A stretch of 64,000 nucleotides of DNA from an uncultured Nitrososphaerales archaeon (GTDB lineage: Archaea > Thermoproteota > Nitrososphaeria > Nitrososphaerales > Nitrososphaeraceae), in assembly GCA_963695855.1 (NCBI GenBank), contig CAVOHZ010000010.1, positions 1,568,001-1,632,000 on the forward strand. The letters are read 5' to 3'. Positions 30,172 to 51,931 of the stretch are shown piece after piece (positions within the stretch are counted from its first letter, which is position 1; each line of letters opens with the position of its first letter). A model generated the notes under the pieces. The model was not told where the DNA came from. It saw only the letters and a list, made by a program, of their open reading frames with translations, and made no database searches. Both the position numbers and the translations under genes were made by a program.

Positions 30172-30543
30172 TTAGTCCTTTAGTAAATCTAGAATACTTT
30201 CATGTTCACCTATCAGAATTCCTTTTCTTTCAAATAATTGCACTACACATACTGTAAATCCTACATGTGCACAACTATCGTCTTTACAATATGTACAGAA
30301 TGGAACACCATCATTGATGGATATTATCACGTCAGAATGTAGAGTATTATCATTTATAATAGATTCTTTATCTTTTTCATATCTTTTAAGTATCATATGA
30401 TTAACAGGAGAGTTTTTATTTTCTGAATTTAACCATTCCACAAAAGCAAATTCTCCATAATCCAAATTAGAAATATGAATTTTGTTTGCTTGCTTCTCTG
30501 ATGTTATTGCGTTTTTCAAATTTTTATCGATATCTTCGAACAT
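30172..30543 (-). CDS. Hypothetical protein with C-terminal CxxC...CxH putative Zn site
   Basis: PFCTYCKDDSCAHVGF. Confidence 0.6.
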   Translation of the reverse strand: MFEDIDKNLKNAITSEKQANKIHISNLDYGEFAFVEWLNSENKNSPVNHMILKRYEKDKESIINDNTLHSDVIISINDGVPFCTYCKDDSCAHVGFTVCVVQLFERKGILIGEHESILDLLKD

Positions 30544-30718
30544 TTTATGATCTTTTTTTATTACTCCTACTGCTTTGAATAGGCCTCATTTATAGTAATT
30601 CTCACTATCAACTAAATAAAATATAAAGATTTGGGATATATTCTATACGGCTCTGTAGGTGAAATGTTCGACAGAGCTAACATTCAAGAAGAAAGCCACT
30701 ACCAATACTCTTGCAAAT

Positions 30719-31747
30719 ATGTATGCGGCATTAGATTTAGGACAGAAAAACATTCAGGCAGTATTGAAAAATAAAGATGGTAAGATTATAAAGGAAAATA
30801 AAATACAGCGTAATACCAAAACAATACTAGAATTTCTTGATAATAGTAACAAGAATCATAATAATATTGATATTGTAATGGAGTCTGGTTACAACTATCA
30901 ATATCTATATGATCTTTTACAAGATGAAGGTTATAATGTAAAAGTAGCACATCCACTAATGGTCAAGGCAATAGCATATGCTAAAGTCAAGACAGATAAA
31001 GTAGATGCTAGAATATTAGCAGATCTACTAAGAATGGATATGATACCAGAATGTTATATACCTAATAAAGATATAAGAAATTTACGAGATCTAGTTAGAC
31101 GCAGATACTATTTTGTCAGTATTCGAACAATGTTCAAAAACAAAGCACATGTTGAGATGAGTAAAAGATGGTTAGATGCTAATGTGACTAATAATATAAC
31201 AACAACAATGATTAAAAATGATCCATTTTCTAAAAAAGGAAAATGTCATTTACGTTCACTGGGAATACATGCATTAGATGATTGCCTTGATACCATAGAT
31301 TTTCTAGATAGAAAAATAAAAGAGTTGGATACAGAAATAAAGAAATTGGCAATAGAAGATAAATACTCTAAACATCTTATGACAATTCCAGGTATATCTT
31401 ACTATGCAGCTCTTCTAATATCAAGCGAGATAGCAGATATTAACAGGTTTCCAGACTATGAACATCTGTGTTCTTATGCTAGATTAGTACCTGGTACATA
31501 TCAATCTGGAAATACATCATTCTCAAAAACAGACAAAAAACAAGGGAGCAAAATGCTAAACTGGATTATGGTACAGTGTACTCATACACATGTACGTTAT
31601 TGCCAATCATCGATAACAGTACATTACAACAAGATAAAGAATAGAAAGAGAAATAACAAAATTGCTATAATTGCAGCAGCAAGAAAATTAATGCGTGTGA
31701 TATATGTTATGCTAAAGGAAGATCGTCCCTTTAGACTGGATGAATAA
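30719..31747 (+). CDS. IS110-family DEDD recombinase/transposase
   Basis: ALDLG, VMESG, KTDKVDA (DEDD); TIPGI and SYARLVPGTYQSG with catalytic Ser; ATG at 30719. Confidence 0.95.
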   Translation: MYAALDLGQKNIQAVLKNKDGKIIKENKIQRNTKTILEFLDNSNKNHNNIDIVMESGYNYQYLYDLLQDEGYNVKVAHPLMVKAIAYAKVKTDKVDARILADLLRMDMIPECYIPNKDIRNLRDLVRRRYYFVSIRTMFKNKAHVEMSKRWLDANVTNNITTTMIKNDPFSKKGKCHLRSLGIHALDDCLDTIDFLDRKIKELDTEIKKLAIEDKYSKHLMTIPGISYYAALLISSEIADINRFPDYEHLCSYARLVPGTYQSGNTSFSKTDKKQGSKMLNWIMVQCTHTHVRYCQSSITVHYNKIKNRKRNNKIAIIAAARKLMRVIYVMLKEDRPFRLDE

Positions 31748-31759
31748 TAATATAGTATA

Positions 31760-31893
31760 GGACCTCTTGGTTTCTTGCATCGTCATATTGTTATTATTAT
31801 ATGATAAGTATGATGGATGCCATCTGTAGGTTAGGTCTGGCTACTACTAGCGCAAAGCCACGGTGCACTATTGGTGCGTATGGGAGAATGCTA
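31760..31893 (+). ncRNA. Predicted bridge/seek RNA of the IS110 element
   Basis: Two stem-loops with internal loops carrying TGGTTTCT and TCTGTAG (target matches) and ATGGGAG (match to the element's right end); ends approximate. Confidence 0.8.
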
Positions 31894-31979
31894 TTATTCA
31901 TCAGTTAATCATATTAGGAACGAGTATTATATGAACATGGGAGAAACCATCATAGCTAGCATCATTCTACCATTAATTA

Positions 31980-32888
31980 TTGAATAAACAACAATCAAAA
32001 TATGTTAGATTAGCAGATCAACTATTACGTATTCTCAAACATTGCAGAATTCCATTATATATGCATAGAAAGAGCAATCACATTTACACAGTATGGCAAC
32101 ACATAGTACTTGTTACAATAAGAAGACAGTATGAAGGTAAGAGTTATCGAATGTTTACAGACTGGCTTGTTGAAGCATACTATTTGAGGTTGTTTCTCCA
32201 GTTGTCCAAGATACCACATTATACAACATTACAGAAATTCACTGATAGAATCAATATAGTGTTATTAGAAAGGATAATCTCATCTTTTATTCTTTTTACA
32301 GGTACAAGATACATATTTGCTGGAATAGATTCAACTGGATTCAAGGTAACACATGCATCAGAATACTATACAGATAGAGCCAAATTGAGAAAGAAATATG
32401 CTAAATTATCTATTGGCGCAGATGTTCTAAAGCAAATAATCTGTAACATCAAGGTAAGACGAGCTCCAACACGACATGATAACATAGACTTCAAGCCGAT
32501 TGTGACAAGAATATCAAAAATAAAATCATTATCTGTAGTTGTTGCAGATAAAGCATATGACAGCGAAGATAACCATGTACTTGTAATAGAGAAATTACAT
32601 GGCTTGAGTATCATGCCTCCAAGATATGAAGGTGTACCAGTATGGAAGACTCATGGCAGATACAGAAAGGGAATGAAACGTGGATACAACAAGATTCTGT
32701 ACAACCAGCGTAACAAAGATGAAACTATTGTATCAGTCATAAAGAGGTTATTTGGGGAACATATTACATCCAGGCTGATAAGAATGCAGAACAGGGAACT
32801 GACTTTGAGATGTATAGCATACAATGTTCACAGAATGGTGAAGTTGGTTGTTATGGTGATGGTTTCTACACAGCCATTCTATACATAA
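31980..32888 (+). CDS. IS5-family DDE transposase
   Basis: PHYTTLQKF, GIDSTG, VADKAYDS, YNQRNKDET...IKRLFGE. Confidence 0.9.
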   Translation: MNKQQSKYVRLADQLLRILKHCRIPLYMHRKSNHIYTVWQHIVLVTIRRQYEGKSYRMFTDWLVEAYYLRLFLQLSKIPHYTTLQKFTDRINIVLLERIISSFILFTGTRYIFAGIDSTGFKVTHASEYYTDRAKLRKKYAKLSIGADVLKQIICNIKVRRAPTRHDNIDFKPIVTRISKIKSLSVVVADKAYDSEDNHVLVIEKLHGLSIMPPRYEGVPVWKTHGRYRKGMKRGYNKILYNQRNKDETIVSVIKRLFGEHITSRLIRMQNRELTLRCIAYNVHRMVKLVVMVMVSTQPFYT

Positions 32889-33149
32889 TCTTTTTATACT
32901 TCCGTTTTTAAACACCTTCACTTTTTAAATTATCTAATATTTTTAATGTTAACATATTAGAGGATGATACTTTATTTATAGAATTTAAGAAATACTCATA
33001 TTTTTTGGTATCTAATGATTGTTTTATTAATATTGTGTAATAAGATGGGACATATTTAAAATTATGAGAAACTATTTAATAGCAATATAATTGTCTCAAC
33101 TTTCCAAATAATATTGGTTTTGATAATAGTAATAGAAGATCTCCTATTG

Positions 33150-37295: not shown

Positions 37296-39056
37296 TGTGT
37301 TATTACATCTCAATGTTCCAACACAATTAGTAGACTTATTATGGTCATAATACATGATTAACTTGAAATACAAAGATTCTCTCATAAAGACAGGAGAAAT
37401 ATTACTTGATTTTGATATTATTGATAATTGGATTATGTAATTAGAAAAGACGAATTATGGTAAAGAAGAAGGTAGAAAGTTCGTATATCAGATTCATTTA
37501 CGAAATTATTGTAGTACAGAGAGTATACATATTTTCACTTACCGTACATAGAAGAAGACAAGAAGGTTTATTACTAGCTCACACTATCAATACAATTCAG
37601 TTCCATCAATTCCAAATCATAGTAACATTAGCGGAAGAAGATACAGACTGAATATTAAAAAATAAGCAAGGACAAATCTATTTACATGATGGTTATTTTG
37701 TAATAGCAATTGATTGTACTTGTGTAAAGATATCCAACCAAATAGAATGAATACGTCAAATGGAATGTGAATAGAGGATATCTAGAGACATATGTAGCAG
37801 TTGATAATCAAGAGAAAGAGAGTCTTATCATTAAAAGTAACTTTCAAACAAGTACATGATAGAAAAGTATTGCCAGAGCTGATAAATGACGTGACGATAA
37901 AGAATAATAAGATAATAATAGATACTATTATTATGGATTGCTCCTATGACGATAACAAGAATTTTCAATTTCTATCATTTAAAGAAATGCCACCAGCAAT
38001 AATAAATGTAAGAAATAATTGCAGATGTAAAAATACCAATCATCGCGTCAGAAACAAGGTTGTAAAAAGTACAGAAAAATAACTTACAGTAATGCTGGAA
38101 AGAAGTGTACTATATTGTCAGAGATGGATGACAGAAGAAACTGTCTTCTTTTGTATCAAAAGAATGTTTGGACAATATGTTTCCGCTATTTGATTTGAGA
38201 ATACCTAAAGGAGATAATACTCAAAGTATCATTGTATAAGTTGTTTATTAGAAGTATAGGTGCTGTTAACTTAAGGAAAGAGCTATAGCTGTGAACGCTC
38301 TATTCTAACAATATAGATGTTGTTAAGATTTGTCAGAAACATCCACATGTATAGTAATGTATTCTCTTTATTTGTACTTTCTTGGTCTGAGTCTACGAAA
38401 TACATCCAAAGCATTGGAACCTTTTAAGGACCAAAAAAGAAGTTATGTTACTGTTTGGAAATGGATTCAACTATTTGGTTCATTGTAGATCTATAACAAG
38501 CATAGAAGAATTTCCGCATTCATAATCGATGAGACAATGATTCAGATTGGTAATCAACACTTTTGGTTATGGATTTGTATTGAACCTGTTCATAAATCTA
38601 TACCTGGAATCTATATTTCAGAAGAGAGAAACATGCTTGTAGCAGAAAATTTTATCAGATCCCTTGTATCAAGGTATGAAAAACATACAGTATACACAGA
38701 TGATGGTGGTACGTGGTATCCACAAGCATGCAACTTTTTAAATCTAAAACACGTATCGCATTCACCATTTGAGAAAAGTCTGATTGAAAGAGTGATGCAG
38801 TATTTCAAGGATAGGACGGAAAGTTTTGATGATTACTATCCTTGTAATAATATTATACAAAATTGTCATCTACAACATGTATACAATTGGATAAGATTAT
38901 TCGTTTATCTATATAATGCAAAAATCAGAAACAAAATTCTATTCAAAATTGGAGGTAAAATAGTCTTAAGTTAACACAGCCGAAGTATAAGTGTTACATG
39001 ATAACTGATTATTGATAGAAAGTGATGATTATCTAGATGAGTTGTACAACAGAGCA
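37296..39056 (+). pseudogene. Degraded IS5-family element (related to 50919-51931), interrupted by IS6; boundaries approximate
   Basis: Fragments GEILLDFDIIDNW, KRVLSLKVT..QVHDRKVLPEL, IMDCSYD; right end agttgtacaacagagc. Confidence 0.78.
38259..38981 (+). mobile_element. IS6-family element, copy B1, transposase disrupted (C-terminal ORF 38537-38974)
   Basis: TIRs ggtgctgttaacttaag / cttaagttaacacagcc; 8-bp TSD gaagtata; [31 protein letters not shown]. Confidence 0.9.
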
Positions 39057-50918: not shown

Positions 50919-51931
50919 TGGTTTGTTGCATAACTCGTTTAACCAATCGTTCTCATTATTATATAATTGATAATTATGTAACAGTTATACTTTGAAACCA
51001 GTTATACAACGATGCTTTCAACATTATCTCTCTTATCATGTTCTCTAACCTGATAGCAGTAACATATTCACCAAACATTCTCTTCATAGAGGAAAAAACA
51101 GATTCTACCATCCATCTTTGTCCATAGCGTACACTATCTTTCCATTCTTGCAAATCATTCTTCTGCATTTTCACCATCTTGTTTCTAAGGTAATGATTGG
51201 TCTTGTTTCTGCATCTAGAATTCTTTCTTACCTTTATTGCTGGTTGTATGCCTTTAAATGATAGAAACTGAAAGATCTTGTTGCTATCATAGGAACCATC
51301 CATGATAGCAGTATCTATTACCTTATTCTGTTTTATTGCTATATAATCAACCAATTTTGGAAGTACTTTTACATCATGTACTTCTTCACTAGTAACATCT
51401 AATGATAGAATTCTCTTCTTTTTTATATCGACTGCTAAATGTATCTTTAGATATCCTCTTTTTACATTCCACTTGTGTCTAATCCATTCACCCCTCTTAG
51501 ATACCTTTATACCGGTAGAATCAATTGCAATAACAAAATTATCATCATGCAAGTTAGATTTGGTTATATCATCAGAAATCTTGATATCCAGTCTATTTAT
51601 TCTTCTGCTAATGTTACTATAATCTGGAATTGATGGCAAAGTGTTTGAAGCATGTTCTCTTACTACTCCTTCAGTTTGTCTGTAGGGTAAGTGAAAGTAT
51701 GCTCTCATGTATCCCAATAACTTGACAAATGAATCTGGATATACGAATTTCCTACCTTCCTTTTCCTTATTCATCTTCTCTAGTTCAGTATTCCAGTTAT
51801 CTATAACATCAAAATCCAGTAATACCTCACCACGTTTAACAAGAGATTCGTTGTAATTTCTCCAGTTCACATAATATGACTAGAATTGGTTAGCTAAATG
51901 TGTTGAGAAGAACAAGTTGTGCAACAAGGCA
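50919..51931 (-). mobile_element. IS5-family element
   Basis: TIRs tggtttgttgcataact / agttgtgcaacaaggca; 8-bp TSD ttagtcag (50911-18, 51932-39). Confidence 0.9.
50974..51870 (-). CDS. IS5-family DDE transposase, apparently intact
   Basis: NWRNYNESLVKRG, LPYRQTEG, AIDSTG, KIHLAVD, MDGSYD, RWMVESVFS..KRMFGE. Confidence 0.93.
   Translation of the reverse strand: MNWRNYNESLVKRGEVLLDFDVIDNWNTELEKMNKEKEGRKFVYPDSFVKLLGYMRAYFHLPYRQTEGVVREHASNTLPSIPDYSNISRRINRLDIKISDDITKSNLHDDNFVIAIDSTGIKVSKRGEWIRHKWNVKRGYLKIHLAVDIKKKRILSLDVTSEEVHDVKVLPKLVDYIAIKQNKVIDTAIMDGSYDSNKIFQFLSFKGIQPAIKVRKNSRCRNKTNHYLRNKMVKMQKNDLQEWKDSVRYGQRWMVESVFSSMKRMFGEYVTAIRLENMIREIMLKASLYNWFQSITVT

Follow-up and report, generated by a model that had tools for sequence, protein, structure and literature searches.

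Here, we describe an IS110-family insertion sequence that has entered the left terminal inverted repeat (TIR) of IS5-family elements, at one position and in one orientation, in an uncultured archaeon of the Nitrososphaerales. The locus lies in a 64,000-nucleotide stretch of DNA, hereafter the window, whose numbering is used throughout unless a contig is named; all stranded features are on the + strand. Taken as a whole, the evidence is best explained by an element that very probably carries its own guide RNA, which directs its DEDD transposase to the IS5 TIR site. What can be observed directly are the site, the orientation, the pattern of copies, the empty sites, a conserved structured RNA and guide matches that covary with the target. 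We know of no study of the IS110 family in this archaeal lineage.

The insert (1285 bp, 30659-31943, with boundaries from the comparison with empty sites) separates base 10 from base 11 in the left TIR of an IS5-family element of 942 bp. On its left remain the outer 10 bp of that TIR, GGCTCTGTAG (30649-30658), severed from the rest of IS5; in empty IS5 copies, GGCTCTGTAG is followed directly by AAACCATCA. On its right, the remainder of IS5 (31944-32875, defined by sequence, ORFs and family profiles) begins with AAACCATCA in the inner left TIR (31944-31952) and runs through the transposase ORF to the right TIR (32857-32875). The right tip of IS5 ends at 32875 and reads GGCTGTGTAGAAACCATCA in reverse complement, and removal of 30659-31943 in silico yields GGCTCTGTAGAAACCATCA, which is identical to the right TIR at 18 of 19 positions. 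The whole composite is bordered by two identical copies of the 9-bp sequence ATTCTATAC (30640-30648 and 32876-32884), the target site duplication (TSD) made by IS5. The IS5 ORF (31980-32888) reads through the right TIR and has its stop codon in the flank; it matches PF01609 and the NCBIfam profile NF033579 "IS5 family transposase" (154.8 bits, cut-off 140). With a DDE transposase, TIRs matching at 18 of 19 positions and a target duplication, the host belongs to the IS5 family. As the left flank and the insert both close with AG, the position of the cut can be moved leftward by 0 to 2 nt, and we take AG to be the core dinucleotide. Empty sites have a single AG, and the IS110 element adds no duplication of its own.

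The inserted element encodes a transposase of 342 aa counted from the ATG (30719-31747), with a DEDD/RuvC-like domain (PF01548, E 4.9e-24) and a PF02371 domain (E 2.8e-18). Residues 2-336 align to profile positions 1-342/343 of NCBIfam NF033542 "IS110 family RNA-guided transposase" at 218.3 bits (cut-off 140), and relatives in the PDB are the transposases of IS621 (8wt6) and ISCro4, with E values of ~4e-13. The transposase domains, the site- and orientation-specific insertion, the shared core and a structured non-coding end with guides, the RNA itself being predicted, place the element in the IS110 family. Its architecture is of the IS1111 type, with a short left end, the transposase gene and a long 3' non-coding end: 60 nt precede the ATG versus 196 nt downstream of the stop codon (31748-31943), and the predicted guide for the top strand lies 5' of that for the bottom strand, the order of the IS1111 group. 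The subterminal inverted repeats depart from this group. They comprise just 6 bp, ATGTTC (30664-30669) and GAACAT (31933-31938), each 5 nt from its tip, whereas IS1111 members are described with repeats of 11-13 bp (7-17 bp according to a second source) and terminal extensions of 7 nt and 3 nt.

The 3.55-Mb genome contains three full copies of the IS110 element, 100% identical over 1285 bp, and 3/3 lie at GGCTCTGTAG|AAACCATCA, after base 10 of an IS5 left TIR, with one orientation throughout. Each of the three composites has a flank and a TSD of its own. Besides fragments, the genome has six full-length IS5 copies, which fall into three subfamilies; the IS5 TSD measures 9 bp at the window copy and 7-8 bp, each with its own sequence, at the others. 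The three occupied IS5 copies share 85.9-88.6% pairwise identity, and two of them are closest to an empty copy (97.5% and 98.5% identity). Because the occupied copies have diverged in this way and two are nearest to empty ones, the IS110 element must have entered three separate IS5 lineages; the three insertions are recent and independent, and the IS5 copies old. Two empty copies, at C2:69024 and C3:379967, start with GGCTCTGTAGAAACC and the third with GGCCCTGTAGAAACC. The exact 13-mer covered by the guides, TCTGTAGAAACCA, is intact at only two sites in the genome, both of them empty IS5 left TIRs. Thus, there are five perfect targets, three occupied and two empty, while all seven TIRs with one mismatch (six right and one left) are empty; for 12 sites in all, occupancy of 3/5 versus 0/7 gives a one-sided Fisher p of 0.045, calculated by hand. 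The right TIR of the window IS5 is a mismatched site of this kind, with TGTGTAG where the left TIR has TCTGTAG; the one-mismatch right TIRs also include AATCCA variants. An earlier note on this DNA had proposed a precise insertion into an IS5 TIR, with a guide that fits the occupied left TIR and a right TIR that differs within the guide-matched stretch. The junctions, the restored repeat, the 9-bp TSD and the two TIR sequences bear it out; had it been wrong, other copies were expected at unrelated sites, and uninterrupted IS5 copies were expected not to start in the predicted way, and neither is the case.

The 196-nt 3' end is predicted to encode an RNA of the seekRNA/bridge-RNA type, which is both conserved and structured. 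The putative gene spans 31759-31906 (G000:C10:1599759-1599906, 128 bits with covariance model R1). Target guide T, TGGTTTCT (31768-31775), is complementary to AGAAACCA on the top strand, i.e., the core and the inner TIR. Target guide B, TCTGTAG (31823-31829), has the top-strand sequence of the outer TIR and the core and hence complements the bottom strand. The two guides, 8 nt antisense to the right of the cut and 7 nt sense to the left, overlap on the core AG. In 20,000 rounds of dinucleotide shuffling, the non-coding end gave both matches together once. In an alignment of 20 covariance-model matches that had itself been fitted to the model, which was built on four helices only, 94.5% of cells pair and compensatory changes occur in 8 of 19 pairs; none of 500 shuffles did as well, and slid controls reach 25-43% pairing. 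A third stretch, ATGGGAG (31880-31886), has the same sequence as the right terminus of the element (31937-31943) and is kept in relatives; it is a candidate donor guide, for which no covariation is available. For the left end of the element, no stretch of at least 6 nt in the RNA fits, and trials by hand with wobble pairs were unconvincing. The minimum-free-energy fold of the entire 3' end is as stable as those of shuffled sequences (z = 0.06), and we left unused the pairing of guide stretches in this single-sequence fold; an RNAalifold pairing that took in parts of the guides and ATGGGAG was also set aside. A search of Rfam with window positions 30400-33100 at E values up to 1 gave no family match.

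Relatives in other genomes show guides that differ together with their flanks, and these changes fall in the same alignment columns as the guides of the window element. In G014, the relatives L060/L071 have the guides TTGTTGTCT and AATTAG and lie at GCGTAATTAG|GCAACAA, and L077 has GGTAGGTTCT and ATTGACAG and lies at CGATTGACAG|AACCTA; guide B thereby covaries with the left flank. In G074, a relative inserted at an IS5 relative (L062) has the guide GATTTCT and the flank AAATCA, and this guide change tracks the IS5 TIR variant from AAACCA to AAATCA. That the element is programmed against an IS5 end, as the earlier note had surmised, gains support from this covariation. Not every relative conforms: the guides of two transposase-less, apparently chimeric fragments (G014 L080, L081) do not fit the right flank, and in G051 L061 AGAAAC alone fits. 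At seven further left junctions of the lineage, in this and other genomes, 7-10 of the 10 TIR-tip bases precede the element; BLAST alignments continue from IS110 into IS5 in G026, G044, G065 and G074; and in G051 an IS110 fragment sits at the same position of an IS5 right TIR (L073). One G014 relative (L027/L054) was dropped as a case of insertion into the end of a multicopy element, given that the common 502 bp upstream are found only twice in that genome; the two loci may represent one duplicated event. As a separate observation, the lineage of the window element has stayed with IS5 across several genera. The genome also holds a second, unrelated IS110/IS pair. The two IS110 proteins are ~35% identical to each other and the host elements belong to different IS families, and both IS110 elements lie exactly 10 bp inside a TIR, with TIR bases 9-10 as the core. 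For a third IS110-family type (C10:929318-930828 and relatives), no target could be defined from five copies.

We considered whether the shared position could go back to a single old insertion, after which IS110 and IS5 spread as one composite, through the IS5 transposase or by segmental duplication. Such a unit would be bracketed by a TSD, as the composite is, and in other genomes IS110 is likewise joined to IS5 in relatives with 67-86% DNA identity. However, the IS110 parts are identical while the IS5 parts are not; moreover, by pairwise identity the occupied IS5 copies do not group together, and the composites differ in flanks and TSDs. We regard this explanation as highly improbable. Had homologous recombination or gene conversion, rather than transposition, carried the insert from one IS5 copy to the next, IS5 homology would have been at hand to the right of the insert; to its left, however, only 10 bp of IS5 are available. 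Conversion would also homogenize the adjacent IS5 sequence, yet the three occupied copies differ directly after the junction (AGCAACATTCTACAG, AGCAACATTCTACCA and AGCATCATTCTACCA), which makes this route just as improbable.

The remaining question is what recognizes the site. The transposase protein could itself recognize the TIR, or a complex of the IS5 transposase with the TIR, with the matches in the 3' end being coincidental or idle. The guide RNA is predicted from sequence, its fold is not unusually stable and a donor guide for the left end was not found, all of which would sit well with recognition by protein. Nevertheless, coincidence is hard to reconcile with how rarely shuffled sequences contain both matches, with the same RNA positions varying in step with the target in three further pairs of guide and flank, or with compensatory changes in the RNA structure; moreover, RNAs of this type are experimentally established for the IS110 family. 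Recognition by protein therefore seems unlikely to us, if somewhat less remote than the two routes of spread considered above.

We, therefore, favor guidance by RNA, for which we suggest the following scenario. The RNA would be made and bound by the transposase and would direct it to the 13-bp site within the IS5 TIR. An internal loop would present the two guides, its 5' side pairing with the core AG and AAACCA on the top strand and its 3' side with the bottom strand of TCTGT and AG. Recombination at the core would then insert the element after TIR base 10, always facing the same way, and would create no new duplication. Movement presumably proceeds via an excised circle, whose junction would read ...CATGGGAG joined to GTGAAATG... 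The split TIR would halt transposition of the IS5 copy, and excision, judging by reports on other IS110-family members, would restore it. In the assembled contigs of four public runs, we found neither a joint across 30659-31943 nor the circle junction of the IS110 element. The X6 contigs gave one weak joint, from 30636 to 32924, with a shorter side of 21 letters and likeness set at 90, so that another organism may be its source. Also in X6, loose ends show IS5 left ends that continue as ...GGCTCTGT before 31942; uninterrupted IS5 TIRs are thus present somewhere in this soil sample. The X15 RNA contigs cover part of the IS5 gene only and are uninformative on the guide RNA.

The locus offers a natural example, within a few genomes, of one transposon targeting another under RNA guidance, in which occupied, empty and one-mismatch targets occur along with a guide change that tracks a target variant. 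It brings together a small collection of natural guides and their targets for an IS1111-like bridge/seek RNA whose element has unusually short subterminal repeats, and it allows the disabling of one mobile element by another to be put to the test. Provided that a split TIR stops IS5 and that excision repairs it, elements of this sort would serve as a brake on other transposons that is reversible and programmed by sequence. A broader and rather doubtful extension is that the Nitrososphaeraceae, soil ammonia-oxidizing archaea, harbor a guild of RNA-guided IS110 elements that are specialized parasites of DDE-type insertion sequences.

What is known of the mechanism of the IS110 family is unchanged by the present finding, which is an archaeal addition to a known kind. 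Reports that this family targets the end repeats of insertion sequences and transposons date back to 2001/2003, and those of guidance by RNA to 2024; archaeal members, or members that target TIRs, may already figure in the ISfinder-wide target tables published with the 2024 papers. The closest precedent is IS1383, an IS110-family element of Pseudomonas putida H that integrates into the inverted repeats of IS1384 (Muller, Lauf, Herrmann 2001). The two elements are alike in being specifically aimed at an inverted repeat that belongs to a different insertion sequence; however, IS1383 is bacterial and plasmid-borne, and the present element resides in a soil ammonia-oxidizing archaeon. In the present case, a predicted guide RNA can be read and covaries with its target, the element occurs in more than one genus (several in all), and the same genome holds another, unrelated IS110/IS pair. 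IS4321/IS5075, which target Tn21 repeats and for which nearly 900 insertions are described with one target logo, similarly insert at one position and in one orientation in the TIR of another mobile element and have a long 3' non-coding end after the transposase gene; their host is a bacterial Tn3-family transposon, whereas here it is an IS5-family insertion sequence in archaea. As with IS1383, IS4321 and IS5075, copies occupy one TIR position in one orientation and uninterrupted targets exist. The IS1111-type seekRNA elements ISEc11, ISKpn4, ISPst6 and ISPa11 (Siddiquee et al. 2024) are likewise described with a non-coding region downstream of tnp, in which the complement of the top strand precedes that of the bottom strand and the two overlap in the target, and with natural reprogramming among relatives. 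By contrast, their reported targets are a short linear site, attC sites or REP in bacteria, and the RNA described here is predicted. Finally, the bridge RNA recombinase of IS621, for which scarless and RNA-dependent excision is reported (Durrant et al. 2024; Hiraizumi et al. 2024, 2026), has a homologous transposase (PDB 8wt6, E 4e-13) and internal-loop guides that pair with both strands around a core dinucleotide. In IS621, however, the left end encodes the RNA and the two donor guides have been identified, while the predicted RNA of the archaeal element lies in the right end and has one candidate donor guide.

A 1285-bp IS110-family element lies precisely within the left terminal inverted repeat (TIR) of a 942-bp IS5-family element, and we regard this arrangement as a well-supported, real and new archaeal case of an already known targeting behavior. 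On the forward strand, a target site duplication, ATTCTATAC (30640-30648), is followed by the outer IS5 left TIR, GGCTCTGTAG (30649-30658), the insert, which begins with GTGAAATGTTCG and ends with GAACATGGGAG (30659-31943), the rest of the IS5 element, from AAACCATCATAGC to TGATGGTTTCTACACAGCC (ending at 32875), and the second duplication copy, ATTCTATAC (32876-32884). Removal of the insert restores GGCTCTGTAGAAACCATCA, in which 18 of 19 bases match the reverse complement of the IS5 right end; together with the duplication on both sides, this bears out the claim of the earlier note that the IS110 element is inserted exactly in the IS5 TIR. Because the left flank and the insert both terminate in AG, the cut can be placed 0-2 nt further left, and AG is the shared core. 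Literature searches at the level of main papers listed none on an archaeal IS110 element in an IS5 TIR.

The encoded proteins agree with both family assignments. The IS110 ORF contains the Pfam domains PF01548 and PF02371 and scores 218.3 bits against NCBIfam NF033542 ("IS110 family RNA-guided transposase"), and the IS5 ORF (31980-32888) contains PF01609 (Pfam) and scores 154.8 bits against NF033579 ("IS5 family transposase"), the cut-off being 140 bits for both. If the IS110 protein begins at the ATG at 30719, NF033542 is covered from position 1. The IS621 and ISCro4 transposases are the relatives of this protein with solved structures (E ∼4e-13). The non-coding ends measure 60 nt upstream of the ATG and 196 nt downstream of the stop codon. 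The element shows those features of the IS110 family that could be assessed. The IS5 frame reads through the right TIR to a TAA (32886-32888) in the flanking duplication or flank, and an open frame of 299-301 aa is kept in all three occupied IS5 copies. Within 31922-31943, at a distance of 14-21 nt from the right tip of the IS110 element, there is a candidate TATA-like A+T-rich stretch, TATTATAT, which points outward, i.e., toward the IS5 gene when integrated; in a circular form, it would face the transposase gene.

The genome (3.55 Mb, 11 contigs, ∼31% G+C) contains three full copies of the IS110 element, all on contig C10 (C10:140666, C10:267112 and, in the window, C10:1598659). These copies are 100% identical over 1285 bp, have GGCTCTGTAG on their left and AAACCATCATAGCTAGCA on their right, and are oriented like the IS5 gene, while each composite has different flanks and a separate 8-9-bp duplication. 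The identical IS110 copies reside in IS5 copies that share only 85.9-88.6% identity with one another. Thus, the IS110 element entered three old, separate IS5 lineages, which excludes spread of IS110 and IS5 as a composite unit. Altogether, there are six full-length IS5 copies in three subfamilies, and for two of the three occupied copies the nearest relative is an empty copy (97.5% and 98.5% identity). Two decayed fragments of the same IS110 lineage are also present: a 3' fragment, 94% identical, which ends in GGAG next to AAACCTTCC (C3:39413-39742), and a 5' fragment, 79-81% identical, which follows ATCTCAGTAG (C2:54954).

The empty IS5 copies at C2:69024 and C3:379967 begin with GGCTCTGTAGAAACCATCA and that at C10:1663241 with GGCCCTGTAGAAACCATCA, and the intact 13-mer TCTGTAGAAACCA occurs in the genome only at two empty left TIRs. 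Among the five perfect target sites, three are occupied. The six right TIRs each differ from the 13-mer at one position (TGTGTAG, or AATCCA) and are all unoccupied, and the single mismatched left TIR is likewise empty. This contrast between perfect (3/5) and mismatched sites (0/7) is suggestive only (one-sided Fisher p = 0.045, calculated by hand). In another genome of the family, the 3' RNA-bearing fragment L073 (G051:C347, RNA strand) is joined to AAACCATC of the right end of an IS5 relative at the same TIR position, as assigned by aligning it with the reverse-complemented IS5 right end of the window. Thus, the right TIR is used where its sequence fits the guide, supporting the idea that the left-only pattern here may be a matter of single mismatches.

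A DNA search gave matches at E ≤ 0.001 in 40 of 201 family genomes, many of them weak or from other IS110 types. The main lineage has seven further distinct left junctions (L005, L015, L022, L029, L031, L055 and L056; drawn from this genome, G000, and from G026, G069, G074, G048, G051 and G020, mostly as fragments on short contigs), which have 7-10 of the 10 TIR-tip bases upstream and unrelated sequence beyond. In G026 (C100, L015/L025), a deletion fuses the first ∼780 nt of an 86%-identical IS110 relative to the IS5 interior, and the TIR tip still precedes it. In G044 and G065, from another genus, only the 3' RNA region is left, joined to an IS5 element at ∼69% identity.

The 3' end of the element contains a predicted guide RNA gene (31759-31906). 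Its T guide, TGGTTTCT (31768-31775), is complementary to AGAAACCA, its B guide, TCTGTAG (31823-31829), is identical to the target's left half, and the two matches overlap on AG; ATGGGAG (31880-31886), a candidate donor guide, equals the right end of the element. When the 3' end was shuffled 20,000 times with its dinucleotides preserved, both target matches at these lengths arose once. Seven homologous 3' ends were aligned, and the covariance model derived from this alignment detects the RNA in 11 of 151 family genomes, including this one. In the alignment of 20 hits, which was itself fitted to the model, 94.5% of cells pair and 8 of 19 pairs have changes on both sides; none of 500 shuffles reaches these values, and slid controls give 25-43% pairing. 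In the modeled structure, the target guides flank an inner hairpin within an outer stem, predicting an internal loop. Three results count against the RNA model: the single-sequence fold of the 3' end is no more stable than shuffles, no Rfam family matches the region, and no guide for the left end of the element was found in the 3' end.

Guides compared at identical alignment columns across loci vary with their flanks. In G014, L060/L071 have guides TTGTTGTCT and AATTAG and flanks GCGTAATTAG and GCAACAACCCC, with one G-U pair, and L077 (G014:C1:736690-739815) has guides GGTAGGTTCT and ATTGACAG and flanks CGATTGACAG and AACCTATACC. In G074, the L062 guide, GATTTCT, follows an IS5 TIR variant, its flank AAATCATG running on into an IS5 homologue. 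L077, L080 and L081 are mini-derivatives of ∼0.33 kb without transposase, consisting only of ends and the guide RNA gene. There are misfits: L080 and L081 of G014 join an L077-type guide region to an L071-type 3' tail and flank and are apparently chimeras of two types of element, their guides being unfit for the flank; in L061 of G051, AGAAAC alone fits; and in the decayed remnants of G044 and G065 the guides do not fit. The G014 copies L027/L054 may represent one duplicated event. As judged from sequence, the evidence given so far supports target choice by the RNA.

We suggest that the most likely mechanism is RNA-guided recombination by the DEDD transposase, in which the joined element ends would recombine, at the core AG, with the 13-bp target in the TIR. 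By analogy with the IS110-family literature and DDE transposases in general, the element would move as a circle, the split TIR, its outer 10 bp separated from the remainder by 1285 bp, would disable the IS5 copy, and excision would restore the TIR. For the IS110 family, scarless excision is reported, and excision is described as RNA-dependent but inefficient; the assembled contigs examined gave no evidence of excision of this element.

A second IS110-family element (1464 bp, ∼35% protein identity to the window's) lies outside the window and is inserted in each of the two TIRs of a single copy of a multicopy ∼1-kb IS (C10:287352-291308). Its two copies lie in opposite orientations, one at C10:287362-288825 and the other in a 99.8%-identical 1482-bp inverted repeat (C10:289817-291298), and the whole structure has no surrounding target duplication. 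At both insertion sites, TGCCTTGTTG/CACAACT and TGGTTTGTTG/CATAACT, the distance to the tip is again 10 bp and the core is TG. The subterminal repeats of this element measure 12 bp, and its 5' non-coding end is long. Some 20 or more further copies of the ∼1-kb IS are unoccupied, and an ∼86%-identical relative of the second element adjoins a related IS (C8:370371-372395). This recurrence is the basis of a bolder reading, a Nitrososphaeraceae guild of RNA-guided IS110 elements parasitizing DDE-type insertion sequences, which we consider conceivable but rather doubtful.

In the window, the ∼1-kb IS (TIR TGCCTTGTTGCACAAC) has an unoccupied copy at 50927-51923 (- strand) and a ∼72%-identical relative at 37365-38246. 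A third IS110-family type (∼1.5 kb) has five copies, including C10:929318-930828 and C8:48394-49907, and MITE-like, short end-only matches at at least six places. All copies begin with (G/A)GCTCTG, resembling the IS5 TIR tip. In a reverse case (C10:166371-168918), ∼1 kb matching the multicopy DDE IS interrupts a third-type transposase gene.

That members of the IS110 family target the inverted repeats of other elements is already in print: IS1383 is reported to insert into those of IS1384 (2001) and IS4321/IS5075 into the TIRs of Tn21-family transposons (2003; a target logo is given for IS4321), and RNA guidance was shown in 2024. The main element resembles the IS1111 group in RNA position and guide order and differs in subterminal repeat length, which is 6 bp with 5-nt extensions on both sides. 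According to Siddiquee et al., IS1111-type seekRNAs have the layout seen here: they lie in the non-coding region downstream of the transposase gene, the stretch complementary to the top strand is located 5' of the one complementary to the bottom strand, and the two matches share bases of the target. Similarly, according to Durrant et al., the bridge RNA of IS1111-group elements sits in the right end, as does the predicted RNA of the main element.
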